Below are positions 7,009-50,553 of a stretch of DNA of 64,000 nt, in pieces (positions within the stretch are counted from its first letter, which is position 1; every line of letters begins with the position of its first letter). The translations under genes were made by a program, and so were the position numbers. This DNA is from Parcubacteria group bacterium (GTDB lineage: Bacteria > Patescibacteriota > Minisyncoccia > Moranbacterales > UBA11712), in NCBI GenBank assembly GCA_041659685.1, contig JBAZXV010000003.1:66040-130039 (forward strand), in the 5' to 3' direction. Under the pieces are notes generated by a model. It saw only the letters and a program-made list of their open reading frames with translations. It was not told the origin of the DNA and made no database searches.

Positions 7009-7558
7009 ATCACAATTTCAAGAGGCCGCGCTCGGAGGCGGATGCTTTTGGTGCATCGAGGCTTTTTTCCTGCGTCTTAAGGGCATCCATAAAGTTATCT
7101 CCGGTTACGCGGGAGGAAATCCGTCCTTCGACGGGAAAAAACCAACCTACGAAGAAGTCTGCTCGGGGAAAACGGGACATGCGGAAGTGGTGAAAGTAGA
7201 ATACGACCCCGGCGTTGTTTCCTATCAAGACCTTTTGAATGTTTTTTTCGCGATGCACGACCCGACAACATTAAACCGCCAGGGATCTGATACCGGGACG
7301 CAATACCGCTCAATCATACTTTATGGAAATGAAAACCAGAAAAAAGAAGCGGAAAAATTCATCGGGAATCTGGAAAAAGAAAAAATTTTCGAGAATCCGA
7401 TTGTGACGGAAATAAAACCGCTCAAAGAATTTCATCCCGCCGAAGAATACCACCAAAAATATTTTGAAAACAATGCCTTGAGACCTTACTGCCAAATTAA
7501 TATTTCCCCAAAAATCGCGAAGCTTCGGGGAAAATTCCAAGATCTTCTGAAAGATTGA
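6980..7558 (+). CDS. msrA: Peptide-methionine (S)-S-oxide reductase MsrA
   Basis: GGGCFWC active-site motif near the N-terminus and the segment GKxxHAEVVxVEYDP. It overlaps the msrB 3' end, so the start is uncertain. Confidence 0.85.
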   Translation: MKNREGTGNKSQFQEAALGGGCFWCIEAFFLRLKGIHKVISGYAGGNPSFDGKKPTYEEVCSGKTGHAEVVKVEYDPGVVSYQDLLNVFFAMHDPTTLNRQGSDTGTQYRSIILYGNENQKKEAEKFIGNLEKEKIFENPIVTEIKPLKEFHPAEEYHQKYFENNALRPYCQINISPKIAKLRGKFQDLLKD

Positions 7559-7635
7559 TCCTTATCCGAAAACGCTTTATGCGTCCCTTAAAATCTTCCG
7601 CTTAATTTTTTGCCTGAAATATTTCATTTTTCTGC

Positions 7636-8034
7636 TTGTACTCATATATTAATAAAGAGGCCAAATCACCGAAAAAAGGAGAGAGAATGGAAAAAAGCAT
7701 TCCCGTTTCAAAATTTTTGGAGATAGCGAAAACCATTGAACAGAATTCAAGGAATCAGGCTCGGGTTACCGAGCAGGAAGAAGAAAAAGAAAAAAGACAT
7801 TTTCTTGTGATCCAGGGAAAAAGGCTGGGGCAAAGCCTTGAAGAATACGCGCGTTCCAATCCGGACAGCGGCTTAATCAGGTTTCTCGCAGAAATTGTTA
7901 TGCCCCTTAAAGCAAAAGGATTGAGAAGCTGTTTTTCGGAAGCTTGTAAGATCCTTGAGCCCCTGGGAATGAATTACTTTTCCGGCGAATATCTCAGAGA
8001 CTGGCAAACTTTTTTCGAACTTCCCAAGAAATAG
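7636..8034 (+). CDS. Hypothetical protein
   Basis: ORF only. A downstream hairpin supports transcription. The start may instead be the internal Met at 7687. Confidence 0.4.
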   Translation: MYSYINKEAKSPKKGERMEKSIPVSKFLEIAKTIEQNSRNQARVTEQEEEKEKRHFLVIQGKRLGQSLEEYARSNPDSGLIRFLAEIVMPLKAKGLRSCFSEACKILEPLGMNYFSGEYLRDWQTFFELPKK

Positions 8035-8039
8035 AACCG

Positions 8040-8084
8040 GCTCCGGACGGCAATCCTGTCCGGAGCTGAAACACGCCTTTTTTT
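8040..8084 (+). terminator. Terminator-like hairpin
   Basis: gctccggac-ggcaatcct-gtccggagc stem-loop. The T7 run is displaced 11 nt from the stem. Confidence 0.4.
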
Positions 8085-8164
8085 CACTCATCTCTTAAGT
8101 CATTTCAAAAAAAGAGGCGTCATTGAATTGCCTTTTCGGGTTGGATTTGTTATTTTCACAGTAT

Positions 8165-8338
8165 ATGAGGAAAACATTCATCATGACGGGAATGGTCATC
8201 GGTTCGATTGCGGGAGGATATGTTCCCGTAATTTGGGGCGGAAGCATTTTCTCCATGTCTTCCGTTATTTTTACCGCCATTGGCGGATTTGCGGGAATCT
8301 GGATCGGAGTCAAGCTGGGATCGGGATTTGATTTTTAG
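8165..8338 (+). CDS. Small glycine-zipper membrane protein (YeaQ/YmgE-like, hypothetical)
   Basis: About 57 aa with two Gly-rich hydrophobic helices (GSIAGGYVPVIWGG and AIGGFAGIWIG). Confidence 0.4.
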   Translation: MRKTFIMTGMVIGSIAGGYVPVIWGGSIFSMSSVIFTAIGGFAGIWIGVKLGSGFDF

Positions 8339-8770
8339 GAGGCATTAATCACCAAGCATATGACAGCTTGTGAATTTGAAGACGGCGGAGAATTTGGAGA
8401 TCTGTAAAAAATGCCCCAGAGAAAGATTCGACCTGCCGATGCTGGGATAAACCGAAGCCAAAAAATATAAGCCGATAAAATAATTTGTTTACACATGGCC
8501 GCCCTTATATGTTCGCCAAAATTAAAAAAGAGGATTATTACGAAAATATGTATGACATCGAGGATCTCACACCTCAACAGAAAGAGTGGGAACAGAAAAT
8601 ACGAGAAGATACCTCCGCCAAAAGAGCTTTGATGAATCTCAAAAATTTCATCTTTCCTTGACAAAAGCGACTGCCGTTGTTATTTTTATTTATCAGTTTT
8701 GCCACAAATTCAATTCCGTTTTGGTCTTGAATACATAACATATATCCAATTGCTGAATCAGGGGGGATTG

Positions 8771-10345: not shown

Positions 10346-13300
10346 TTATTTCTGCGGTTTCTTCTTTGTTTTTACTAAAGACACATAAAGCGTCGGAACA
10401 ACAAAAAGAGTGAAAAACGAAGAAATAGACAGTCCGAAAATTATGGCGCTCCCGAGCGAACGCCAGAGTTCGTTGGAAAGGGTGATTGGAATAATGCCGG
10501 CAATTGTGCAAAAGGAGGTGATGAAAATAGCCTCCAATCTTGATTTTCCGGCATCAATGGCCGCTTCTTCAAAAGGAATCCCGAATCGGATATTGAGATT
10601 AATCTTATCAATAAGAATTATCGCGTTTTTCACCACAATCCCGAAAAGAGCCAGAATGCCGATAAGCCCGGGAAAACTCAGGTTAACGCCGAAAATTGCC
10701 ATGCCGATAAAAACTCCAATGAGCGCGAGCGGCAAAGTGACAAGAACTATCATCGCTTCAATGAATGAATCAAACTGAATGACCAGGGTAACAATAATAA
10801 GAGCCGCCGCAATTGCCATGGCGCGAATAATGGAAAGCACCGATTCCGTGTTCTGCTCATTTTCCCCTCCGTAAGTAATCGAATAACCGGCCGGTAATTT
10901 GTATTCCCTTGCGGCGTTATCCTGAAACTCCTTGACGACCTGCGTCGAACTGGTTTTCCCAGAAACTCCCGCCGTGAGAAGCACGGTCCGCTTCTGATTA
11001 ATCCGGGTTATCGTATCAACTGACGGAACAAGCTGGATTTCAGCGACGTCCTTAATATAAACGGGCTGCCGGGAAGTGTTCAAAATTTCCAGATTTTGAA
11101 TCGCATCGAGCGAAGGTATTTTTTTGTTTTCAAATTTAGCCACCACATCAATAGTCTTGTTTCCGGAAATAACGTTTGTCACGGTTGTCCCGGAAATGGC
11201 CGTCCGGAGAGTATTCCCCACAAGAGCGGCATTGAGCCCGTAAAGTTCCATTCGGGCCGGATCGAGATGAAAAGTATATTCAGCCGGAGAATTTTTGAGG
11301 GAAATGTCGCTGTTCACCGTTCCGGGAATGGAATCGAGAATGGGTTTCAAATCCCGCGCAATTTTATCGAGCGTCTGAAGATCATCGCCGGATATTTGAG
11401 CCTGGAATGCCGATCCTGAAGGCGGACCTCCGCTTGGAGCGCTCACGGATATTGTTGCTCCTTGAATATCGGCAAAATCGCTTCTCATCTTTTGGGCCAG
11501 ATCATAGGATGTAATGGACCTTTTCGACGTATCGGTCAGTTTGATTGTGAACGAAGCGGTGTTGGAAGTATTTTGCGAAACCGATATCCCTTCTCCCTGC
11601 GAACCGGGGTTTCCGACTATGGTCGAAAAATTAACAATTTCCGGATACCCCAGCAATCTTTCGTCTATTTTTTCGGCAATCAGATTTGTTTCGGAAAGAT
11701 CAAGGCCCGGCGGCCCTTCAACAGAAATGAAAAGCGTGTCTGAGTTTTGCGGAGGAAAAAATTCAGATTTTACGATGCCAAAAATGGGAAGGGCGACGGC
11801 GGCGAGAAAAAGAACGGTCGTAGCGGCAATTGTCGCAATGCGCCTTTTTCTTGTTCCCATAATTTTCCTCAGATATTTTTCATAAACCGGAAGCACCCGG
11901 TCGAAATGGACGATTCCGTGGATAATTTTTCCCCCCAGCGACGCTTCCTCCCGAATCCCCTGCTTTCGCAATTTTTCTTTTATTAATTCATCACTGTCCC
12001 ATTCCCTTTCCATCAGGAGTTTGTTTTGATTTAAAATATTTTTTCCGCTTCCGAAATACCACGCAAACATCCAGGCGATAATGAAAAAAGCCACTGCTGA
12101 AATTCCATAACCCGGTATATTATGCTGGAGCGCGCCGAATGATCCGGCGGCAAGCAGCAGAAAGACGATAATTATGTAAAACCTTTTCGTAAACCGGATT
12201 CGCTCCAGGATCGCCGCCAGGGGATGATTTATCATAAGAGCGACAAACAGCGAGGCAACCAGGGTTACCGAGACCGTAATGGGAATGGATTTTATAAATT
12301 CGCCGATAATTCCCGTCGAAAGAAGAAGCGGAAGAAAGGCCCAGACGGTGGCAAGAGTCGTCGTGGTGAGAACAATTTTAAAATCATGAAGAACAAGAAG
12401 CACGGCCTCCTCCGGAGTATATTTCCCCGTTTTCATATATTGCTTCGTGGCCGAGACAACGACAATCGCGTCGTCCACCAGAAGGCCAAGCGAAAGAAGA
12501 AGGGAGAATATCGAGAGGAAATTCAGCGACGTTCCGGTCATTTGCATAACACCGAAAGTTATGAAAAAAACGAGGGGGATGGCCAGCCCGGCAACCAGCG
12601 CTTCTTTGAGACCTACGATAAGAAACAGGATTATCATAACAAGCGCAAGTGTCAGAAAAAAGTCATGCTGGAGCTGGGTAAAGTCTTTATTTATCTCGTC
12701 GGCCATATCAAGCGTGGATTGGTATTCGATTCCCGGAGGAAAAGTTTTCAGAAGGGTTTCTATGGTCTGATTGGCCTGGTTGACCGTATCCAGAATATTT
12801 CCTCCCGCCCTTTTGACCACCTGAATTGTTACCGCGCTTTGCGGCTGTCCGCCCTCGATTGAAAACCGGGAAAGAACCGTTTTTTCAATCGCGGTTTCCT
12901 GAACGCTGGCAATATCCTTAAGATATACAATCGCCCCGGAATCCGCATGGAGAACCGGAACGTTTCCGAGAGCCACTGCGTCAAAAAAACGCGCGTCAGC
13001 CCGAACAGGATAGTCAAATTCTTTCCCTTTAAAATTGCCGGCCGGAATAGCATGATTCGTCGCGGCAACAGCCTGATTGGCCTGATCAACCGAAATACCG
13101 TAAAAAGTAAGTTTTTGCGGATCATATGCAATATCGAACTCATTCTGATCTCCCCCGTCGACGTCTACCTGGCGTATGCCGGGGATTTTTTCGAGTTCGT
13201 CTTGGATTGTTTCCGCGTAACCGCGCATTTCAAACCCGTTATAGGGGCCGACGAGCGCGAATGTGACAATGGGAGTGTCATCAAAAGATATTTCAATTAC

Positions 13301-13882
13301 CTGGGGATCCTGGGCGTCGTCGGGAATATCGCGCCGGATGTTCGGCAATTGGTCCCGAAGGCTTCTGATGGCATCTGTCAGATTCTGATTGGAATCAAAT
13401 TCAACCGTGACGGAAGAAAAAGAGTTGGTTGAGTTCGAAGTGATTTTATCGACACCGGCCACTCCGGAAATATCCGTTTCGATTTTTTTTGTGACCAGCT
13501 CCTCAACATCCGAAGGAGACGCACCCGGATAAGCATCGGTGATAACAGCAATAGGAATTTTTACTTCCGGGTTCGATTCTCGCGGAAGGCGAAAAAAGGA
13601 GTACAGCCCCCATGCCGAAATCACGACGACAAGCAAAGCGACTACCCGAAAACGAGTAACAAAAAAATTGAGCCACGTCTTGCGAAGCTCCGGGCGAAAT
13701 TCAAGTTTTTCAAGATAGGCCGAATCAGTTGAAGTAAAATTTTTTCCTTTCTCGGAATCCTGCGGCCCCGAAGCGGCAACATCTCCAGATTTATTGGCAT
13801 TGCCCTGATGATTCGCATCGCCAGTGGAACTTTTACGGTTCGGGTCGAAATCCGGCTTTTCTTTTTCCTGAAAATTATTCAT
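10346..13882 (-). CDS. Efflux RND transporter permease (AcrB/HAE1-like)
   Basis: 1178 aa. 12 transmembrane helices with two large periplasmic loops. Transmembrane segments are AcrB-like. Confidence 0.85.
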   Translation of the reverse strand: MNNFQEKEKPDFDPNRKSSTGDANHQGNANKSGDVAASGPQDSEKGKNFTSTDSAYLEKLEFRPELRKTWLNFFVTRFRVVALLVVVISAWGLYSFFRLPRESNPEVKIPIAVITDAYPGASPSDVEELVTKKIETDISGVAGVDKITSNSTNSFSSVTVEFDSNQNLTDAIRSLRDQLPNIRRDIPDDAQDPQVIEISFDDTPIVTFALVGPYNGFEMRGYAETIQDELEKIPGIRQVDVDGGDQNEFDIAYDPQKLTFYGISVDQANQAVAATNHAIPAGNFKGKEFDYPVRADARFFDAVALGNVPVLHADSGAIVYLKDIASVQETAIEKTVLSRFSIEGGQPQSAVTIQVVKRAGGNILDTVNQANQTIETLLKTFPPGIEYQSTLDMADEINKDFTQLQHDFFLTLALVMIILFLIVGLKEALVAGLAIPLVFFITFGVMQMTGTSLNFLSIFSLLLSLGLLVDDAIVVVSATKQYMKTGKYTPEEAVLLVLHDFKIVLTTTTLATVWAFLPLLLSTGIIGEFIKSIPITVSVTLVASLFVALMINHPLAAILERIRFTKRFYIIIVFLLLAAGSFGALQHNIPGYGISAVAFFIIAWMFAWYFGSGKNILNQNKLLMEREWDSDELIKEKLRKQGIREEASLGGKIIHGIVHFDRVLPVYEKYLRKIMGTRKRRIATIAATTVLFLAAVALPIFGIVKSEFFPPQNSDTLFISVEGPPGLDLSETNLIAEKIDERLLGYPEIVNFSTIVGNPGSQGEGISVSQNTSNTASFTIKLTDTSKRSITSYDLAQKMRSDFADIQGATISVSAPSGGPPSGSAFQAQISGDDLQTLDKIARDLKPILDSIPGTVNSDISLKNSPAEYTFHLDPARMELYGLNAALVGNTLRTAISGTTVTNVISGNKTIDVVAKFENKKIPSLDAIQNLEILNTSRQPVYIKDVAEIQLVPSVDTITRINQKRTVLLTAGVSGKTSSTQVVKEFQDNAAREYKLPAGYSITYGGENEQNTESVLSIIRAMAIAAALIIVTLVIQFDSFIEAMIVLVTLPLALIGVFIGMAIFGVNLSFPGLIGILALFGIVVKNAIILIDKINLNIRFGIPFEEAAIDAGKSRLEAIFITSFCTIAGIIPITLSNELWRSLGSAIIFGLSISSFFTLFVVPTLYVSLVKTKKKPQK

Positions 13883-13888
13883 GAGAAA

Positions 13889-15049
13889 TTACTGCGTGAT
13901 GCTTATTTCCTGTCCGTCTTGCACAAGCTTGCTCCCTTGGATTATTACCTCCGAATCAGGCGGGAGGTCGGCTTTTATATCGGCTGTTTCCCCTGTCACA
14001 TTGAGAATGTCGACATTAATTTTTTTTGCTTTTCCGTTTTCAGCGATAAAAATATAGTTTTCATTTTGCCCGACATTGATCGCAGAGAGAGGGAGAATGA
14101 GCGCTCCGGATTCGCCGGGGGTTTTTTCGACTGAAAAAGAAACACTGACAACGGTCCCGGAAAGAAGATCCGAATTACCCGGCTGCTTCGGATAGGCTTC
14201 GATTAAAAATCTTTTTGTCGCGCTGTCAGCCTGCGGAGAAATATTCCGCACAATAAAAGGAATTTCGCTTCCTTTATTGTCAGTCAAAGCAATCTCGAGA
14301 CCCCTTGAAACAGAAGACAGCTGGTTTTCATCGACATAAAATTGGACTTTCACATTCGCCGTTTTACTGACTTTGAAAAGAGACTGGCCGACAGAAATCG
14401 AATCTCCCGTTTCGACCATTTTTTGAGTGACATATCCGCTGATCGGACTTGTGATGAGATGGTCGTCAAGCGAGCCTTTATATCCCACCTTGGCGTTTTT
14501 GAGCTGGATTTCAGCCAGATCAACGGCCTCTTTGGCGGCATCTTTTTGCGTCTTCGTCACAGTCTTTTCAAGTGTCGGATTTTTTTTCTCGTAATCATAT
14601 TGGTCTTTGAGGTTATTATAGGTTTTTTTATCGAGTTCGAGTTGCTCCTTGGCCTGTTCGACGGATAATTGGGACTGCTGAACATCGGCGCTTTTAAATC
14701 CGCTTTCTCCGACTTTTTGCTTGTTTCCCGAATCGTCTATTCTTACAAGAAGCGAGCCGGCTCCGACGCGGCTTCCCAAGGAATAATTGACGACTGCGGC
14801 CGTTCCGGAAGATTTTGATGTTATCTCAATTTCCTGGTCGCCCGCTATTATAGCGGGATATTGGATGGTTTCAGCAAAAGACTGGCTATTCGCAACTGAC
14901 TGAACGGAAACATCCTGCGGAAACCTTGGCGGCTCTCCGGTGACGGGAGCCTGTTTTCTCGAAGAGCGAGCGAGAAAAATAAAAAGGGCCGCCACAGCGA
15001 CAATCAGGAAAAAAAGTATAATTCTCTGTTTAGATAAGCGTTTTTTCAT
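13889..15049 (-). CDS. Efflux RND periplasmic adaptor (membrane-fusion protein)
   Basis: N-terminal transmembrane anchor, coiled-coil segment and beta-rich C-terminus. Lies 7 nt upstream of the RND permease on the same strand. Confidence 0.65.
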   Translation of the reverse strand: MKKRLSKQRIILFFLIVAVAALFIFLARSSRKQAPVTGEPPRFPQDVSVQSVANSQSFAETIQYPAIIAGDQEIEITSKSSGTAAVVNYSLGSRVGAGSLLVRIDDSGNKQKVGESGFKSADVQQSQLSVEQAKEQLELDKKTYNNLKDQYDYEKKNPTLEKTVTKTQKDAAKEAVDLAEIQLKNAKVGYKGSLDDHLITSPISGYVTQKMVETGDSISVGQSLFKVSKTANVKVQFYVDENQLSSVSRGLEIALTDNKGSEIPFIVRNISPQADSATKRFLIEAYPKQPGNSDLLSGTVVSVSFSVEKTPGESGALILPLSAINVGQNENYIFIAENGKAKKINVDILNVTGETADIKADLPPDSEVIIQGSKLVQDGQEISITQ

Positions 15050-16407: not shown

Positions 16408-17388
16408 ATGCCAAAAGTATATTTCTCAAAAAAAATTGAGAAAATAATCGAGAATATAGATTTTTCCCGCCTCGGAAATAACGTGGCCATCAAAGTCCAC
16501 TTCGGAGAAAAAGGATGCGTAACCTACCTCAGACCCGAGTTGGTTCGCGGAGTTTACGAAAAAATAACGAGCCTCGGGAAAAAGGCGTCCCTTATTGAAT
16601 GCAATGTTCTTTATAAGGGAAGCCGGACCAGCAGAGCGGAACACTTGAAAACCGCAAGAGACCACGGATTCGACATGCCGATTGATATTCTGGACGGAGA
16701 AGACGGAAGCGAATTTTCGGAAATTCAGGGTTGTAAAATCGGCAAGGGTATAGAAAAATACGATTCCCTGGTGGTTTTCAGCCACTTTAAGGGCCATCAG
16801 GCCGCCGGCTTTGGCGGAGCTCTCAAAAACATCGGGATGGGCCTTGGCAGCCGCGCCGGAAAACTCGACATGCATTCCAATGTGAATCCGTCCGTAGATC
16901 CCAATACCTGCGTCGGATGCGGAGTCTGCGTCGAAAATTGCAACGCTCAGGCAATCTCGCTCTCAAGCGGAAAAGCAAAGATCGACCAGGGAAAATGCGA
17001 GGGATGCGCCATGTGCATCGCCGTATGCGCAAATGGAGCGGTTCAAGTTCCCTGGCGGGGGAGAACCGCGGCGGATCTTCAGAAAAGGATTGCTGAATAT
17101 TCCTCGGCTGTCCTAAGCTTATTCCCGAACGCGATCTTCATCAGCGCTCTCGCGAATATCACAAAAGAGTGCGACTGCATGGGAATATCCCAAAAACCGA
17201 TAATGGAAGACATTGGATTTCTTTATTCAGATGATATCGTTGCCGTCGACAAGGCGGGTCTCGATCTTGCGGAAAAATATTCAGGCGGAAAATTTTCAAA
17301 AATTAACCCTGTCGATAAGGAAAAACAAGTTGAATTCGCCGAAAACCTGGGCCTCGGAAACAGCAAATATGAGCTTGTTGAGATTTAG
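16408..17388 (+). CDS. DUF362 domain protein with an inserted 2x[4Fe-4S] ferredoxin domain
   Basis: CVGCGVCVENC and CEGCAMCIAVC clusters within a ~330-aa DUF362-type scaffold. Confidence 0.55.
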   Translation: MPKVYFSKKIEKIIENIDFSRLGNNVAIKVHFGEKGCVTYLRPELVRGVYEKITSLGKKASLIECNVLYKGSRTSRAEHLKTARDHGFDMPIDILDGEDGSEFSEIQGCKIGKGIEKYDSLVVFSHFKGHQAAGFGGALKNIGMGLGSRAGKLDMHSNVNPSVDPNTCVGCGVCVENCNAQAISLSSGKAKIDQGKCEGCAMCIAVCANGAVQVPWRGRTAADLQKRIAEYSSAVLSLFPNAIFISALANITKECDCMGISQKPIMEDIGFLYSDDIVAVDKAGLDLAEKYSGGKFSKINPVDKEKQVEFAENLGLGNSKYELVEI

Positions 17389-36656: not shown

Positions 36657-37127
36657 ATGGAAGAAGAAACAAAAAAAGAAAACGAATCCGCGCCGAAAAA
36701 AAGAAACCTATCCGTTTGGATAGCCGCCGCCCTGATAATCATAATAATCGGCATTTTTTATGTGACTCGCGGACGATCCATGTATACAGCGCCTCCCGCT
36801 CAAACTCCGGCCGCGAAGACGCCAAATGAATTATCAGCGTCGGATATTCAGAATATGAGGGTCTTTGAGATATCCGGAAAACCGTTTGAATTCTCGGTGA
36901 AGGAAATAAAAGTGAAAAAAGGAGACAAGGTAAGAATTAATTTTTCTTCCACACAGGGCATGCACGATTGGGTCGTGGATGAATTTAACGCAAAAACAAA
37001 AATCGTCCAAGCGGGTCAAAGCGATTCCATCGAGTTCGTCGCCGACAAAACCGGAATATTTGAATATTACTGCAGCGTGCCGACCCATCGCCAGCAGGGA
37101 ATGGTTGGAAAATTGATCGTGGAATAA
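36657..37127 (+). CDS. Cupredoxin-domain (blue-copper-like) protein, membrane anchored
   Basis: N-terminal transmembrane helix. Putative copper ligands GMHDW and YYCSVPTHRQQGM (C-x4-H-x4-M). Confidence 0.6.
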   Translation: MEEETKKENESAPKKRNLSVWIAAALIIIIIGIFYVTRGRSMYTAPPAQTPAAKTPNELSASDIQNMRVFEISGKPFEFSVKEIKVKKGDKVRINFSSTQGMHDWVVDEFNAKTKIVQAGQSDSIEFVADKTGIFEYYCSVPTHRQQGMVGKLIVE

Positions 37128-37145
37128 AAATAATAAAAAAATAAA

Positions 37146-37370
37146 ATGATTTCTTCATTGGCTTATCACCTCATTGCCGGGTTGCCGCTGGTCGCCTACT
37201 TAGGGATGGCAACTTTAATTTTGCTTTTTTCCACAGCTACGGTTGGTTTCCTTAATTACCGGGGCAATACAAAAATTCCCTTCCGATGGCATCCGCGCCT
37301 TGCCGCGGCTACTCTTGCCGTCGCCGCCGTCCATGCCGTTTTTGCCTTGTCGGCATATATCGGATTTTAA
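37146..37370 (+). CDS. Small membrane protein (hypothetical)
   Basis: 74 aa with two transmembrane helices. Lies 19 nt downstream of the cupredoxin gene. Confidence 0.4.
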   Translation: MISSLAYHLIAGLPLVAYLGMATLILLFSTATVGFLNYRGNTKIPFRWHPRLAAATLAVAAVHAVFALSAYIGF

Positions 37371-37388
37371 AAATTAATTTTCAATTTT

Positions 37389-37619
37389 ATGCCAAAAGTG
37401 CCCGATAACCAGGAAAACGCGAATAAATGTTTTTGCGTCAGATGCCCGACTTTTATCCAAACGGAATGCCCGAAAGAAAAGACGGAAATTCTCTATTGCG
37501 CCAAAGGAAAAACCGACTGTGAACTTTCGAAGAAAGGATGCCTTTGCGGAGCCTGCCCCGTTCACGAAGAATATAATCTTGAAGGCGGATATTTTTGCCT
37601 GCGCGGCGCGGAAAAATGA
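37389..37619 (+). CDS. Cys-rich small protein (DUF2769-like / zf-like domain)
   Basis: KCFCVRCPTF...ECP...LYCAKGKTDCE...GCLCGACPVHEEY. Its two CxCxxCP half-motifs are repeated in the N-terminus of the neighbouring glutamate-synthase-like protein. Confidence 0.55.
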   Translation: MPKVPDNQENANKCFCVRCPTFIQTECPKEKTEILYCAKGKTDCELSKKGCLCGACPVHEEYNLEGGYFCLRGAEK

Positions 37620-37694
37620 GAGAACGCTTGAAAGATAAAAACAAATCAGCATGCCAATCTGCTGATTTATTTTTTATGGAATATTTCTATAATT

Positions 37695-39185
37695 TTAATT
37701 TCCTCCCGCCCACTTCACCTCGCAAATTTCCGCCAAATTTCTGTTCACGGCAACCAGATTTTTCCCCGACAGTGCGTTTACGTCATTCTCTCCGACAATC
37801 CGGGCAAGTTCCGCGATCTCTTCTGTGGATATTTTAATAAAATTCTTGAGCTTGCGAACGCCTTCATCGACATCGAGTTGTTTTGTGAGTTCCGGCTTAT
37901 GCGTCGTTATGCCTGTGGGGCAAAGCCCCGTGTGACAAATCCGGTATTGCCGGCAATTGATGGCAATAAGCGCCGCCGTGCCAATATAGACTGCGTCTGC
38001 TCCGAGCGCAAGGCATTTAGCAAAATCAGCCGAAAAGCGCAGCCCTCCGCCGGCAATCAATGTTATTTTATCTCTTAACCTGAGCTCGCTAAGAATTTTA
38101 TTCGCCCTTGGTATCGCCGTCCAAATCGGAATTCCGACATTGTCCTTCACATACGCGTCCGTGGCGCCGGTTCCTCCTCCAAATCCGTCGACTGCAATGT
38201 AATCAATTCCCGCCTCGGCCAAAATTTTTATATCCTCCTCAATGTTCCCGCAGCCAATTTTCGCGCCGATCGGAATTCCGCCGGTGATTCCCCGCAGCCA
38301 TTTCACTTTTTTCGAAATTTCCGCAGGCGTCTTCATATCGTGATGATGGGCGGGGGAATAAGCCGGCTCTCCGGTCTTGAGCCCGCGAAGCTTTGAGACT
38401 TCCTCCGTCATTTTTTTGGCCGGAAGATAACTGCCCTTTCCCGGATAAGCCCCCTGGCCGAAACGGATTTCAACCGCCGCCACTTTCTTGAGGACGTCTT
38501 CGTTTATGCCGTATCTCCCCGTAGCGTATTGTCCGATCAAAAATTCTTTGGATTCATAAGCTTCCTCGATTATCCCCCCTTCTCCCGAATTAAAAGCTAT
38601 TTTCAATTCTTTTGCGGCGCGGGAAATAACAAGATGCACATTTTTCGAAGTTGCTCCGAAACTCATTCCGGAAATCATAATCGGAGAAGAAACCCGCAAA
38701 GGTTTTTTTGCCGCCGGACCGATGATTGTTTCCGTATTGACTTTTTCTTCTCGGTTTAAGGGTATTTTTGATATTTGAGCGGGAACGAAATGGAGGCCAT
38801 CAAACGAAAAATCGCAACCGGGATTCCTGAGAGATCCCATCGAGTTCACGATGCTCCTGCCCGTTTCCGCCAAAGTCTTGATATCAACGACCTTCCGATA
38901 AAATTCTTCGCTCTCAAGCGCTTTCTTTTTCCGCATAACCGCTTTTCCGCCTTTGGCGGACGCTAATCCAACTTCGTCCCGATTGCAATAATAAATTTCC
39001 TTAAGATTATTCTCGCTCCAAACTTCGCAACCCGGACAGAGGCATCCTTTAGCATCGATATCGCATCGGCTATGTCCGACTTCCTCAGAACAGTACAAGA
39101 TTTCACCCCGGCAATCATGCGGGTAACTGGGACAATTCGGACAAAGGCATTTCTCCCGGTTTTCCTTTGAATTTTGGACTGGCAT
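37695..39185 (-). CDS. Glutamate-synthase-family FMN-binding domain protein (GltB domain-2-like) with N-terminal Cys-rich DUF2769-like module
   Basis: VSSPIMISGMSFGATS...SGEGG and the GGTGA and IAGGGLR segments match the GltS FMN domain. The N-terminal 70 aa (CLCPNCP...GCLCPGCEVW) parallel the 76-aa neighbour. Confidence 0.7.
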   Translation of the reverse strand: MPVQNSKENREKCLCPNCPSYPHDCRGEILYCSEEVGHSRCDIDAKGCLCPGCEVWSENNLKEIYYCNRDEVGLASAKGGKAVMRKKKALESEEFYRKVVDIKTLAETGRSIVNSMGSLRNPGCDFSFDGLHFVPAQISKIPLNREEKVNTETIIGPAAKKPLRVSSPIMISGMSFGATSKNVHLVISRAAKELKIAFNSGEGGIIEEAYESKEFLIGQYATGRYGINEDVLKKVAAVEIRFGQGAYPGKGSYLPAKKMTEEVSKLRGLKTGEPAYSPAHHHDMKTPAEISKKVKWLRGITGGIPIGAKIGCGNIEEDIKILAEAGIDYIAVDGFGGGTGATDAYVKDNVGIPIWTAIPRANKILSELRLRDKITLIAGGGLRFSADFAKCLALGADAVYIGTAALIAINCRQYRICHTGLCPTGITTHKPELTKQLDVDEGVRKLKNFIKISTEEIAELARIVGENDVNALSGKNLVAVNRNLAEICEVKWAGGN

Positions 39186-39487
39186 ACTAATTGAGAAGTA
39201 TTTGTTTATCGCTAATTACTAATACTATACCTAATATCTTTCTTATTTGCCATAACCGGAAAATTTCGCGTAAGCAATAAATCGGTATTTACCCCAGGGC
39301 AAGCCCTGGACCTTATCGGACTGCGCCCCAATATCAAATCGGGGCGGGGCATTAACCGCTTTGATGTCGTCACTCGCCCGGAAATGATCCTGCTAAGCGG
39401 GACCATTTCCCTCGCTTCGTTCGACAATAAAAAGAATTACGCAACGAGTTACGTAATTCCAACACCTTTTATGCCTGCCTCATCTAA

Positions 39488-39784
39488 CTATTCAGATTTT
39501 TGTCCCGGCAGAAGTTCTCGAAAATTTTCGCCCTCTTCCTCTTTAACCAGTAAGTACACCGGACACATGTGGCAGGTTTCCCTCTTTTGCGCAAAAACTC
39601 CCTGGACTTTTTCTCCGCAGAGTGTCCCTGCAATTGCCCAACAGATCCTTCCTCCGTTTTTTCCTTCATTTAGGAGGTCGCTTTCTGAATTTTTATTAAC
39701 CGGACAAACACCCAGCTCGGAAACTTTATCCCCGCCAACTTCGCGTCCGCATTGCAGAAGCTCCCAACAATTGTACTTTTTCAT
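39488..39784 (-). CDS. Two-CW-like Cys-rich domain protein
   Basis: Paired motifs NCWELLQCG...CPV and ICWAIAGTLCG...CHMCPV. Confidence 0.5.
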   Translation of the reverse strand: MKKYNCWELLQCGREVGGDKVSELGVCPVNKNSESDLLNEGKNGGRICWAIAGTLCGEKVQGVFAQKRETCHMCPVYLLVKEEEGENFRELLPGQKSE

Positions 39785-41385: not shown

Positions 41386-41757
41386 TCAGGCTTTTCTTTT
41401 GCATCCCTTACTGCCGCACTTGCACTTAAAATCAAATTGCCCGCTCTTTCCGTAGTCAGTTGTTATCTCTTCCCCCTTTCTTATGTCTCTCGCGGCAATA
41501 TCGCTGCCTCCTTTTGCAAGGGTATTTGCTTCGCAGGAATGATTAACGAATTTTTCGGGAGACTGCATCAGATAATACTTATTATTTCCTGCCCGATAAA
41601 CATAATTTTCCTGATCTTTTCCCAGCTTTTCCATCTCGGATTTCTTAAGAACCCGGGGGTTCCACCTCAAAACTGTTTCGCCCTTTCTGAAATCTCTTGA
41701 GGCAAACACCCCTTTCTTGTCGATCTTAGATTTTCTGATAGTGATGCTTTTATTCAT
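41386..41757 (-). CDS. SET-domain protein (putative lysine methyltransferase)
   Basis: NHSCEAN, EEITTDY and the post-SET CKCGSKGC cluster. Confidence 0.75.
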   Translation of the reverse strand: MNKSITIRKSKIDKKGVFASRDFRKGETVLRWNPRVLKKSEMEKLGKDQENYVYRAGNNKYYLMQSPEKFVNHSCEANTLAKGGSDIAARDIRKGEEITTDYGKSGQFDFKCKCGSKGCKRKA

Positions 41758-47104: not shown

Positions 47105-49381
47105 TTACTTCCGATAAATCCTCAAACTGTTCGCCACCACCGAAACGGAGCTTGCCGCCATGGCTCCCGCGGCGATAATCGGATTAAGAAGCCCTGCCAT
47201 GGCCAGTGGAATAGCGACGATGTTATAGCCGAAAGCCCAAAAAAGATTTTGCCTGATTGTCCTGAAAGTAAGTTTGGATACGGAAATCGCTTCGGGAACT
47301 TTTTTGAGATTGTTTTGCACCAGAATTATCTGCCCCGCTTCTTTTGCGATATCCTGAGCCGAACCCATCGCAATTCCGAGATCCGCCTGCACAAGGCTTG
47401 GCGCGTCATTGATGCCATCGCCCACAAAAACGACTTTTTCCCCCTTTTGCTGGAGTTTTTTCACTTCCGCCGCCTTATCCTGCGGCAGAACTTCCGCGAG
47501 AACATTTTTAATCCCCAGTTCTTTCGCGATATGTTGCGCTACTTTTTGATTATCCCCCGTAATCATTGCCATTTTAAGTCCCATTTCCCGGAACATTTTA
47601 ATAACTTCTTTTGTTTCGTTCCGCAATTCGTCGGCAATGACAATCGCACCCAGCGCATCATTTCCGTGAACGACAAACAGCTTTGTTCCGGATTTGTATT
47701 CATCCGAATCCAGAATCTTTTGAGCCCAGTCCGTGCTGATATTTTTGTCTTTCAAAAGCTGGATGTTTCCCAGAAGAAGCTGCGTTTGATGCTCCCGGCA
47801 AACCGCGGAAATTCCTCTGCCTCTTTCCTCCTTAATATTTTCCACTTCCGCAAATTCAATATTTTTTCTCCGCGCATAATTTGCGACGGCCTTTGATAAA
47901 GGATGTTCCGAATGCCTTGCAAGGCTTCCGGCAATCTTCATAATCTTTTCTTCCGCAATTTTTGATTTGTTGTTCCTGATTATTGATAATATTTCCGGCC
48001 TTCCTTTTGTGAGGGTCCCTGTTTTATCGAAAACGACCATAGAGATGTCTTTTGCCCGCTCAAAACTTTCCCCGCTTTTGAAAAGGATGCCGCTTTTTGC
48101 CCCTCTTCCGGTCCCCACCATAATGGCCGCCGGAGTCGCCAGACCCAAAGCACAGGGACAGGCAATTACCAGAACCGCCACGGCGTTGATCATTGCCAAA
48201 GTGAAATCACCGCGCAAAAAATACCAGCCGGCGAAAGTCAGAATGGCAAGAAATATCACTGTCGGCACGAAAATCTCCGCGATCTTGTCCGCTAATTTTT
48301 GAATCGGAGCTTTCGAACCCTGCGCTTCCTCCACGGTCCTGATAATCTGCGCAAGCACCGTCTCTTCTCCCACCTTCGTCACTTTTATTATGAGGACTCC
48401 GTCTTGGTTTATCGTCGCGCCAAAAACCGGAGAATTCTTTTTCTTTTCAACCGGCAAGGATTCGCCCGTGAGCATCGACTCATCAACGTTTGATTCCCCT
48501 TCCGCCACAATTCCGTCCAGGGGAATCTTTTCCCCCGGCAAGACGCGCAAACTGTCTCCCGTCTTCACTTCATCAATGTTTATTTCTTCCTCCCGATTGC
48601 TTCCCCGGATCACGCGCGCCTTTTTCACTCCGAGCTCAAGGAGTTTGCGCATCGCTTCGCCCGCCTGTCCGGTGCTTTTGGCTTCGAAATATTTTCCGAG
48701 AAGTATGAGCGTGATGATGATCGCCGCAGTTTCGAAATAAGCTTCTTTTCCGAAAAACACGGCCCAAAGACTATAAAAATAGGCGGCTAGCGTTCCAAGT
48801 GACACCAGCGTGTCCATATTCGCCCGAAATTTTTTGGCCTGGAAAAACGCCATGCGATGAAATCGGAAACCGAACCAAAAAACAACAACTGTTGCGAGCG
48901 CGAGATGCAGCCACATTACGAGATCGATTCCCAAAAGCAGTTTTCCCGACCTAAGTTTCACAAACATCTCAATAAGCAGGGGGAAGCTGAAAACAGCCGA
49001 CCAGAAAAAAGCTTGCAGTTTTTCTTTAGTATCCCAGCTCTCATGGCGGTGATCGCCGTCCGTATGCATTAAGGCCTGGCCCTGAGGAATTCCGGCGGCT
49101 TGTTCGCCGGAAGGGAAAGATTGAACTTTGAAATTTGAGTGGATATCATCATGCTTCGGAATGCCCGATTCTTCCACTATGTAGCCGTTGTCTATAACAA
49201 CCTGTTTCACATGCTCCTCCGTCAAAGCATCAGCGTCGTATTCAATATAGGCTTTTTTAGACGCAAAATTAACGGTCGCATCCAAAATCCCTTTTGTCTT
49301 CAAAAGTTCCTTTTCGTTCGACACGGCGCAGCTTGCGCAGGACATGCCTGAGATGGCTATTATAAGTTTCCTTTTCTGCAT
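47105..49381 (-). CDS. copA: Copper-translocating P1B-type ATPase
   Basis: [29 protein letters not shown] and TGD motifs. The alternative longer start at 49420 would overlap the upstream gene by 4 nt. Confidence 0.9.
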
Positions 49382-49416
49382 ATATAATATAGTTTTTTTC
49401 CCCCGGCTATTCACAT

Positions 49417-50553
49417 TCACTCAACGATAAATTTTCCGCGGACCATTCCCATCCAACAGCTGAACGGAATCGGGCCTGCCTTTGTCGGCGTGAATTCAAT
49501 TACATTATCCCCTTTTTTTATGTCCTCAGCAATGCCAAATCCAGGAATGACGATCTTACTGGTGCATCCCGTCGCTTCGTCGCCATTTATTGAAAACCGG
49601 ACGGGAATGTTATTTTTTACCCGCAAAACGCTCGGTTCAAATCCGCGGCTTGTGATTTTCATTTCAATGTTTTGGGCGGCGCCAAACGAAGAAGAATCAT
49701 TCACTCCTTTGCTCATTTTTTGATTGGGGACCGGAATTTTTTCGGGAACATCATTTTTCACGCTCCATATCGCAAACCCGGAACTGAATGTGTAAACCGC
49801 AAAAAGAATGACCATTATTCCGGCGGCCTTGCTGACAAAAGCCATCTTCTCAAGCTTTGCCAGCGAAGTGGCGGCGCCGAGAGCGAGAAGCACCGGCATT
49901 GTCCCCAACGCGAACGCAGACATGGCGAAAGCTCCCGCCAAAAAGCTTCCTGACGCCAGCGCAAATATTTGCATGCTCTGTGTAAACCCGCAAGGAAGAA
50001 AAAAAGTGATCCCTCCGAGAAAATACGGCGCCGTTTTGTGTTCCGATTCTTCCAGTTTTCCCCAGTACCTCACCAGAAATTTCGGCATTCTTATTCCCAA
50101 AGAGGAAATCGGCGGAACAAAGCCTAAAATATTAAGTCCCAGCCACGCCATGACAACCGCGATCAGTGTTGTATACGCCGAAATAAAATTGCCGCCCAGA
50201 TTCAGTTTTCCTCCAAAAAGGCCCAGGAGGCCGCCCAAAACAAAAAACGTCAGGATTCTTCCGACGTGAAATTTCAGGTTTGGCTGGAGTGCGCCGGACC
50301 AAACGCTATTTTTTTCGCTGCTTTTATATTTTTCCGAAAAAGCCACCACTATGCCTCCTGCGACCACAAGACATGAAGAAAACGAGGCGGCAATGCCGAT
50401 TAAAAACGAGATTCCAAGTGATATTCTGTCTCCGTATGCCCCAATGCCCCCAAACCATCCTGATAATTGGATGGCTCTATATAAAATTAGGACGGCAATG
50501 ACCGTTAAAAAGGCTTTCAGCCAATCCATCCGCCCGTTATTTGGGTTTTCCAT
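49417..50553 (-). CDS. Membrane protein (DsbD_2/TauE-like transmembrane domain) fused to a C-terminal cupredoxin-like domain
   Basis: Eight to nine transmembrane helices with SSCLV. C-terminal ~90-aa beta domain with C...CWMGM, as in small copper-binding cupredoxin-like proteins. Directly upstream of copA. Confidence 0.5.

Follow-up and report, generated by a model that had tools for sequence, protein, structure and literature searches.

The 64,000-nucleotide stretch of a Parcubacteria group bacterium genome analysed here (assembly GCA_041659685.1, contig JBAZXV010000003.1, positions 66,040 to 130,039 of the forward strand; hereafter the window) carries a four-gene cassette at 36657-39185. 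Its genes encode a cupredoxin, a 74-amino-acid (aa) protein with two transmembrane helices (the 2-TM protein), a free-standing 76-aa protein of the DUF2769 family, and a 496-aa protein in which a DUF2769 domain is fused to a glutamate synthase (GltS)-type flavin mononucleotide (FMN) domain. We suggest, with a probability of roughly 45%, that this cassette forms a minimal transmembrane electron path of a reduced candidate phyla radiation (CPR) bacterium, in which DUF2769 would link a cytoplasmic flavoenzyme to an extracytoplasmic blue-copper protein. An earlier, sequence-only reading had described the 76-aa gene, the fusion gene and a two-CW gene beyond it as one island of Cys-patterned modules. 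All three open reading frames (ORFs) are present exactly where it placed them (Table 1), and its family assignments hold (PF10967, PF10967 plus PF01645, and NF045718). However, it overlooked the partners of the 76-aa gene, a cupredoxin gene and the 74-aa 2-TM gene directly upstream, so that the region it delimited contains half of the cassette plus an unrelated neighbour.

The path that we propose would run, in either direction, from a putative substrate through FMN, a [3Fe-4S] cluster, the fused DUF2769 domain, the free DUF2769 protein, the 2-TM protein and the cupredoxin to an external partner. The fusion would be the cytoplasmic enzyme, combining DUF2769 with a GltS-type FMN TIM barrel that has the Cys triad of the GltS [3Fe-4S] cluster; the free 76-aa protein would act as a cytoplasmic relay, and the cupredoxin would be anchored in the membrane and face outward. 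DUF2769 itself would be a small Cys-ligated metal module for electron transfer, in the role played by the ferredoxin or rubredoxin domains of related flavoenzymes. We propose a relay because electron transfer is the common denominator of all the contexts described below. The sequence-only reading had suggested an uncharacterised metal- or redox-sensing or electron-transfer unit; a redox or electron-transfer unit is still the most economical reading, but the three genes it grouped are not one unit. The novelty lies in the context that the cassette provides, in the evidence that argues against a GltS function, and in the module formed by the cupredoxin, the 2-TM protein and DUF2769.

The DUF2769 module

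The 76-aa protein matches Pfam DUF2769 (PF10967) with E=1.1e-14 and 55.1 bits against a cutoff of 22.8, and residues 13-67 of the fusion match the same model (E=8e-11, 42.8 bits, same cutoff). The two are homologous (41% identity, E=1e-14), in agreement with the claim that the fusion begins with a second copy of the small protein, whose orthologues in CPR relatives are 54-78% identical to it. A ten-Cys signature, CxCxxC...C...C...C...CxCxxC...C, is invariant or nearly invariant both in diverse free-standing DUF2769 members and in 119 fusion proteins, where it comprises Cys 13, 15, 18, 25, 32, 41, 48, 50, 53 and 67. No Fer4-type match to the fusion N terminus was found even at E<=10, and the Cys spacing is CxCxxC, not CxxCxxCxxxCP. 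The extension is therefore not a ferredoxin: rather than a canonical 4Fe-4S domain unrelated to the 76-aa neighbour, it is a homologue of that neighbour. PF04071, which had been put forward as a further check, led nowhere, as neither it nor any other Cys-rich Pfam family matches any of the three proteins at E<=10. A profile search against PDB sequences found no solved structure related to DUF2769 at E<=10, and we found only two passing mentions of the domain in the literature.

An exhaustive profile search yielded 666 representative DUF2769 clusters. Nearly all are stand-alone proteins of 70-110 aa, and the only fusion partner to recur among them is the GltS-like FMN domain; one protein (P0324) carries DUF2769 at the C terminus of a GSDH (glucose/sorbosone dehydrogenase-type) protein. 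When one genome per GTDB species was surveyed, a free DUF2769 gene lay within 10 kb of the fusion gene in 33 of 80 loci and immediately adjacent to it in 26. The pairing of fusion and free-standing paralogue that the sequence-only reading had singled out therefore recurs across phyla, with free copies standing immediately upstream of the fusion (16), immediately downstream (6), convergent with it (4) or elsewhere within 10 kb (9).

Rubredoxin domains are found in the same neighbourhoods. A rubredoxin-fused thiamine diphosphate (ThDP) enzyme is encoded directly upstream of the fusion in 26 of the 80 GTDB loci (Methanobacterium lineage). This 585-aa protein (TPP_enzyme_N/M/C; 8129-9886 in L048, with counterparts in 25 other GTDB loci) lies less than 300 bp upstream on the same strand, and the two genes make up an uncharacterised methanogen pair. 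In some CPR relatives (L001, 9579-12016; nv-MpvO7), genes for a rubredoxin-fused FMN-dependent alpha-hydroxy-acid dehydrogenase (FMN_dh) and for a dehydrogenase of the Ldh_1_C type stand between the fusion and 76-aa genes. The rubredoxin-fused FMN_dh adds to the island a further flavoenzyme that carries a small Cys-metal domain, and in L001 its rubredoxin occupies the N-terminal position that corresponds to that of DUF2769 in the fusion. With ferredoxin- and rubredoxin-fused flavoenzymes the fusion has in common a small Cys-ligated metal domain (for DUF2769 a putative one) at the N terminus of a flavin or ThDP oxidoreductase, in the same neighbourhoods, although rubredoxin has CxxC...CxxC and DUF2769 differs in having ten Cys arranged as CxCxxC...CxCxxC. 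By its gene linkage and fusions, DUF2769 behaves like a partner or carrier module, because free copies flank the fusion, the GltS-like domain is its recurrent fusion partner, and rubredoxin takes the same position in paralogous neighbours.

Ten Cys within about 55 residues, in a CxC...CxCxxC arrangement, resemble Zn3Cys9-type clusters such as those of CXC/pre-SET domains. DUF2769 might then be no electron carrier but a Zn-Cys cluster with a structural or regulatory role, for example a protein-protein adaptor or a thiol redox switch, and its free copies would regulate or assemble the flavoenzyme. Such a role would fit the lack of any DUF2769 match to Fe-S families, the fact that confident models of the domain are obtained only with it packed against the FMN domain, and the detection of a DUF2769 small protein of M. 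mazei only under heat stress (PMC12704099). We nevertheless consider it unlikely, since every recurrent partner of DUF2769 is a redox protein (the FMN/[3Fe-4S] enzyme, GSDH, the cupredoxin with the 2-TM protein, and FMN reductase) and rubredoxin stands at the equivalent N-terminal position in neighbouring paralogous flavoenzymes. Moreover, a stand-alone GltS-type domain needs an electron entry point to its [3Fe-4S] cluster.

The cupredoxin and the 2-TM protein

On the plus strand the gene order is DUF5684, Metallophos, cupredoxin, 2-TM and DUF2769, with gaps of 18 bp both between the cupredoxin and 2-TM genes and between the 2-TM and DUF2769 genes. The window cupredoxin matches Copper-bind (E=1.6e-11) and Cupredoxin_1 (E=1.3e-8) of Pfam and, as read from its sequence, has an N-terminal TM helix and a copper-ligand loop, YYCSVPTHRQQGM, of the form C-x4-H-x4-M. 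In both fold and ligands it is a type-1 electron-transfer cupredoxin, predicted to bind copper. It resembles the plastocyanin/amicyanin-type cupredoxins, including the Patescibacteriota 'pcy' protein (PMC12931201), in its family matches, its type-1 loop and its membrane or lipoprotein anchoring, but cupredoxins of the window type are tied genetically to 2-TM and DUF2769 genes and not to a bc1 or b6f complex.

The 74-aa 2-TM protein has no match in Pfam or NCBIfam, and we searched for its family in metagenome contigs, where 69 loci were found. All 62 unique sequences of the family have His49, His63 and the motif IPFxWHPRxA (100% conservation), the two His lying 14 residues apart on the second TM helix. 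A cupredoxin gene is immediately upstream of the 2-TM gene in 51 of the 69 loci, and the type-1 copper loop, C-x(2-5)-H-x(2-6)-M, is intact in 44 of 47 single-domain partner cupredoxins. A small DUF2769 gene adjoins the 2-TM gene in 23 of the 69 (13 of 27 among loci with at least 1.5 kb on both sides), with the full Cys pattern kept in 22 of these 23 proteins. Where the cupredoxin or DUF2769 is absent, other redox proteins stand in. The 2-TM gene overlaps by 4 bp a gene for an FNR/ferric-reductase-type flavoprotein in L156 (4995-5893); it is followed by FMN_red and then DUF2769 in L105; and it lies beside four-domain cupredoxins in L097 and L103 and beside a CopC-cupredoxin in L110. The 2-TM protein is always placed between extracytoplasmic and cytoplasmic redox proteins.

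By analogy with cytochrome b, in which bis-haem ligands have the same spacing, we suggest that His49 and His63 could bind haem. With only two TM helices and 74 aa the protein would need to dimerise; as a homodimer, possibly a di-haem carrier, it could have one haem close to either side of the membrane. Arg and Lys are abundant in the inter-helix loop, which the positive-inside rule would place in the cytoplasm; His49 would then be close to the cytoplasmic side, with His63 lying further toward the exterior. Two invariant His, 14 residues apart on one helix, are likewise found in transmembrane bis-His haem carriers (cytochrome b of bc1, cytochrome b561, and the Ferric_reduct/MsrQ/NOX membrane domains), and the 2-TM gene resembles theirs in its partners, which encode an FNR-type flavoprotein of the cytoplasm (L156) and redox proteins outside it. 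It differs from them in its two TM helices, its length of 74 aa and its lack of Pfam or NCBIfam similarity, and its haem binding is putative.

The main rival to an electron path is copper handling, in which DUF2769 would be a Cys-rich Cu(I)-thiolate chaperone or sponge of the cytoplasm (metallothionein-like), the 2-TM protein a copper conduit and the cupredoxin a CopI-like resistance protein, the adjacency of flavoenzymes being incidental. CxC and CxxC motifs are typical of metallothioneins. Genes for a CsoR-like repressor, an HMA-DsbD_2-cupredoxin protein and CopA flank the block in L001, L007 and nv-MpvO7, the CopC-cupredoxin gene of L110 adjoins a 2-TM gene, and the window cupredoxin has a weak CopI match (E=2.9e-8, far below the cutoff). 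The window also encodes, at 47105-50553 (-) and 10346-15049 (-), a CopA-type P1B ATPase with HMA, a DsbD_2-cupredoxin fusion, and an RND (AcrB/CusA-like) pump with its HlyD adaptor. However, copper handling leaves unexplained the joining of DUF2769 to an FMN/[3Fe-4S] oxidoreductase in at least 205 species (for the most part methanogens with no copper genes nearby), its fusion to GSDH, and the pairing of the 2-TM gene with a secreted cytochrome b5 and with reductases of the FNR-like and FMN types. The cupredoxins, furthermore, keep the full type-1 electron-transfer site. Copper handling therefore seems to us quite unlikely to be the function of the cassette.

Linkage of the cassette

In all CPR relatives the block of three genes (cupredoxin, 2-TM and DUF2769; the trio) is convergent with the fusion gene, sometimes with the Ldh-like and rubredoxin-FMN_dh genes between. 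Every Moranbacteria locus has the 2-TM gene beside the fusion, and so do L014, L028 and L061. L014, which belongs to a different sub-lineage, has a lipoprotein-cupredoxin, the 2-TM protein, an 84-aa DUF2769 protein and the fusion encoded in one tight co-directional operon, and the fusion directly follows the 2-TM gene in L028, L098 and L100. A secreted cytochrome b5 is encoded nearby in L028; ApbE, Ferric_reduct and GSDH genes are nearby in L100, with the GSDH gene (7306-8463) inside the 2-TM-fusion operon. NOX-like (Ferric_reduct+FAD+NAD), ApbE and Ferric_reduct genes occur near the 2-TM-fusion pairs of L028 (12076-13389) and L100 (1841-3494), and by analogy the gene sets of L156, L028 and L100 resemble extracytosolic electron-transfer loci. 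The cassette also behaves as a single insertion or deletion, for in L092 a two-CW gene (85% identical product) is directly followed by convergent Metallophos and DUF5684 genes, and the fusion, 76-aa, 2-TM and cupredoxin genes are all absent. Conservation of gene neighbourhood across genomes, which the sequence-only reading had named as a check, is seen for the linkage of DUF2769 with the fusion and for that of the trio, both of which recur, but not for the two-CW gene, which is missing from 157 other loci.

Several points weigh against an electron path through all four proteins. A fusion gene is found within 3 kb at only 5 of the 69 2-TM loci, and most fusion-bearing genomes, which are those of methanogens, have no 2-TM and cupredoxin genes nearby; the two halves are separable modules, because the fusion and the 2-TM/cupredoxin pair mostly occur apart. 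Lineage-specific synteny, as with the rubredoxin-ThDP gene of Methanobacterium and the CPR block, amounts to few independent events. The 76-aa protein models poorly on its own (AlphaFold2 with a 97-row alignment, mean predicted local distance difference test score 54, predicted TM-score 0.41), and the DUF2769 Cys pattern fits no known Fe-S motif and has no other family match at E<=10. To our knowledge, CPR bacteria usually lack haem biosynthesis, and the scanned window ORFs include neither NirK nor any other terminal reductase. Finally, the copper-handling reading fits the presence of copper-homeostasis genes (CsoR-like, CopA, DsbD_2-cupredoxin), which border the block in relatives and stand at a distance of about 8 kb in the window.

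It could also be argued that the 76-aa and fusion genes are functionally independent and that their convergent adjacency in CPR bacteria is the inherited synteny of one lineage. They do lie on opposite strands with a terminator-like hairpin between them, the trio operon lacks the fusion in most metagenome loci, the fusion lacks the trio in most archaea, and the CPR loci form one clade. Nevertheless, the co-directional operon of all four genes in L014, the 2-TM gene directly preceding the fusion in L028, L098 and L100, the joint absence of the four genes from L092 and the several arrangements in which free DUF2769 genes flank the fusion across archaeal phyla make independence very unlikely.

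CPR bacteria, or Patescibacteria, are regarded as fermenters without respiratory chains, yet a blue-copper protein is encoded by many of them. If the cassette does provide an electron path, fermentative epibionts could get rid of or take up electrons from cytoplasmic flavoenzymes, among them the DUF2769-GltS-like oxidoreductase. According to a 2025 survey, Patescibacteriota encode a single-domain cupredoxin that is thought to feed NirK, but they lack complex III, and no electron donor is known for CPR cupredoxins (PMC12931201). A specific, testable candidate for this missing electron source is the 2-TM/DUF2769 pair, as the operon links the cupredoxin with a Cys-rich module, a bis-His membrane protein and, in some genomes, also a dedicated flavoenzyme. 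If DUF2769 carries a metal cluster, it would be a new small electron-transfer domain beside ferredoxin and rubredoxin. The more far-reaching claim, that the cupredoxin, the 2-TM protein with His49 and His63, and DUF2769 constitute a previously unrecognised minimal transmembrane electron conduit and that DUF2769 is a new class of Cys-ligated electron-transfer metallodomain, we consider rather unlikely.

The fusion enzyme

Residues 132-465 of the fusion match Glu_synthase (PF01645) with E=3.8e-112. We aligned it to the solved GltS 1llw and 2vdc and used 119 family sequences for conservation. C411, C417 and C422 align with the C-x5-C-x4-C-P [3Fe-4S] motif of GltS and are invariant, and the residues aligned to E903, Q969 and R992 of the Synechocystis ferredoxin-dependent GltS (Fd-GltS) are conserved in the fusion family. 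The substrate loop, however, reads QGAYPGKGSYLP in the fusion versus QGAKPGEGGQLP in solved GltS. At the position of K972 of Fd-GltS (1llw) the family has an invariant Tyr (Y247), and at that of Q978 (position 253) a Tyr or Phe, the window protein having Tyr at both. We take K972 and Q978 to have catalytic roles in the loop at the 2-oxoglutarate/2-iminoglutarate site. The fusion scores 148 bits with the NCBIfam GltS equivalog model, against a cutoff of 1047. Neither GATase_2 (the N-terminal nucleophile amidotransferase) nor the GXGXG beta-helix (domain 3) was found in the fusion protein, in the conserved neighbour clusters of 83 loci, or in the approximately 40 window ORFs scanned; whole genomes were not searched.

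The fusion is a GltS-family oxidoreductase but probably not a glutamate synthase, because no GATase_2 or GXGXG partner was found in these searches and the family has Tyr and Tyr/Phe at the K972 and Q978 positions. The earlier remark that a reduced genome has little need for glutamate synthase agrees with this, given the absence of such neighbours and the remodelled loop. A genuine minimal (ammonia-dependent) archaeal-type glutamate synthase, or MgsC (N-methylglutamate synthase subunit C), with DUF2769 replacing the ferredoxin domain, would account for the strong PF01645 match, the [3Fe-4S] triad and other conserved residues, and the source annotations 'glutamate synthase' and 'methylamine-glutamate N-methyltransferase subunit C', but it is highly improbable in view of the equivalog score, the aromatic residues in the loop and the lack of any gene for GATase_2 (domain 1, MgsA) or GXGXG (domain 3, MgsB) in the 83 neighbourhoods and the scanned window ORFs.

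The closest known systems for the FMN domain are GltB domain 2 (PDB 1llw, 1ea0, 6s6s) and the archaeal stand-alone GltB domain-2 proteins. Compared with GltB domain 2, the fusion lacks the amidotransferase and GXGXG parts, has the altered loop and two extra Cys, and begins with DUF2769 instead of a ferredoxin domain. The extra residues, C312 and C391 of the FMN domain, are invariant in 119 of 119 family members and have no counterpart in the aligned solved GltS; one possibility is that a fourth cluster ligand is among them. MgsC, the JGI label for several homologues, is likewise a stand-alone GltS-type FMN domain, but the fusion has no MgsA- or MgsB-type neighbours, its hosts are methanogens and CPR bacteria and not methylotrophs, and it has the DUF2769 N terminus. 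The label 'glutamate synthase' is misleading in hundreds of methanogen and anaerobic methanotrophic (ANME) archaeal genomes, and showing that the enzyme has neither the partners of GltS nor its substrate loop would correct a widespread annotation; the fusion points instead to an uncharacterised redox reaction in methanogens.

The sequence-only reading had presented the fusion as an unusual architecture. It is in fact neither rare nor new: at least 205 GTDB species, most of them methanogens or ANME archaea, have a relative, and its families are catalogued but uncharacterised. The best 80 of these species are mostly Methanobacterium/Methanobacteriaceae (including the cultured Methanobacterium ferruginis), Methanoperedens, ANME-1 and Methanomicrobiales, with scattered carriers among Moranbacteria/Paceibacterota, NC10, SEEP-SRB2, Aenigmatarchaeota and Archaeoglobaceae. 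The closest homologues (74-80% identical) are from Candidatus Moranbacteria and other Patescibacteria, and Methanoperedens, Methanosarcinales and other archaea account for many at 61-66% identity. Among the 120 best matches, every full-length protein combines PF10967 with PF01645; two shorter gene calls lack the DUF2769 part. Database labels include 'glutamate synthase-related', 'DUF2769 domain-containing', 'glutamate synthase' and 'methylamine-glutamate N-methyltransferase subunit C'. The sole 100%-identical database entry (P0001, JGI) is called at 413 aa from a downstream start and misses the whole DUF2769 domain; this gene call looks truncated, because homologues keep the longer MPVQNS... 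start. In a rough neighbour-joining tree with a midpoint root (L009-L088), the fusions of CPR and unclassified bacteria form one clade nested in an otherwise archaeal family of methanogen, ANME and DPANN sequences, and this nesting suggests that the fusion has moved between domains.

Neighbouring features

The features of the cassette and its flank are collected in Table 1.

Table 1. Cassette genes, domains and adjoining features, in window coordinates
Feature	Coordinates	Strand	Remarks
Cupredoxin, 156 aa, membrane-anchored single-domain type-1 copper protein (predicted)	36657..37127	+	Copper-bind, Cupredoxin_1; first gene of trio operon
Two-TM protein, 74 aa, proposed transmembrane electron carrier	37146..37370	+	No family model; invariant His49, His63
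Free DUF2769 protein, 76 aa, ten conserved Cys, proposed soluble cytoplasmic relay	37389..37619	+	PF10967; last gene of trio operon
Terminator-like hairpin with T-tract, between convergent 76-aa and fusion genes	37643..37668	.	Consensus scan only
DUF2769 + GltS-type FMN/[3Fe-4S] oxidoreductase, 496 aa	37695..39185	-	
DUF2769 domain of fusion, residues 13-67	38985..39149	-	PF10967
Glu_synthase FMN domain of fusion, residues 132-465	37791..38792	-	PF01645
GltS-type [3Fe-4S] motif of fusion, C411-x5-C417-x4-C422-P	37917..37955	-	Alignment to solved GltS
302-nt spacer, two-CW gene to fusion gene	39186..39487	-	Terminator-like hairpin 39460-39433, promoter-like site 39253-39224
Two-CW protein, 98 aa, 7 conserved Cys, 2 Trp	39488..39784	-	NF045718; neighbouring backbone gene

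The 98-aa protein has no Pfam match but is recognised by NCBIfam NF045718 (two_CW_domain; E=4.4e-29, 100.7 bits, cutoff 35), and C6/W7, C12, C27, C48/W49, C56, C71 and C74 are invariant in 43 sequences. It is a full-length member of a family whose stand-alone homologues of about 100 aa are widespread in anaerobes, and nothing sets it apart from them. A search of its profile against PDB sequences gave nothing at E<=10. Homology between two-CW and DUF2769 was considered and rejected (hhalign probability 0.7%).

Contrary to the view of the three genes as one island, a neighbourhood search of 89 sources with a hidden Markov model built from 120 two-CW proteins found the two-CW gene beside the fusion only in the window, and the same arrangement is seen in the close relative nv-MpvO7. 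It is absent near the fusion from the 88 other loci and near the 2-TM gene from 69 of 69 loci (157 in total). Two-CW genes elsewhere have uvrB on one side and lexA/uvrA on the other, or chemotaxis and hydrogenase genes in the vicinity. In the window the gene has its own promoter-like and terminator-like sites, the terminator-like hairpin lying after it, and a promoter-like site precedes the fusion gene (consensus matches only). The two-CW gene appears to be a separately transcribed backbone gene, an unrelated neighbour with no demonstrable link to the cassette, because it is absent from the 157 other loci, occurs in unrelated contexts, has its own promoter- and terminator-like sites and is kept in L092. 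That it serves as a functional substitute for the upstream DUF2769 gene of L001 and L006 was likewise rejected, given this absence, these contexts and the arrangement in L092.

The 302-nt spacer between the two-CW and fusion genes is strongly structured, with several GC-rich hairpins and a minimum free energy of -96.8 kcal/mol against a shuffled mean of -77.9 (z=-3.8). It has no Rfam match, and no conservation of it was seen among the loci compared. A decayed upstream DUF2769 gene within the spacer was rejected, as there was no tblastn signal. In nv-MpvO7 a gap of similar size, 278 bp, lies upstream of the fusion gene.

Two further ORFs of the window may be mentioned. A 123-aa SET-domain protein (41386-41757, -; PF00856, E=1.4e-13) is encoded by an ORF that, in the mechanical ORF list, shares 50 bp with the start of the ORF listed for an inositol monophosphatase. 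The gene at 16408-17388 (+) encodes a further uncharacterised Fe-S protein, a DUF362 member into which a 2x[4Fe-4S] ferredoxin domain is inserted.

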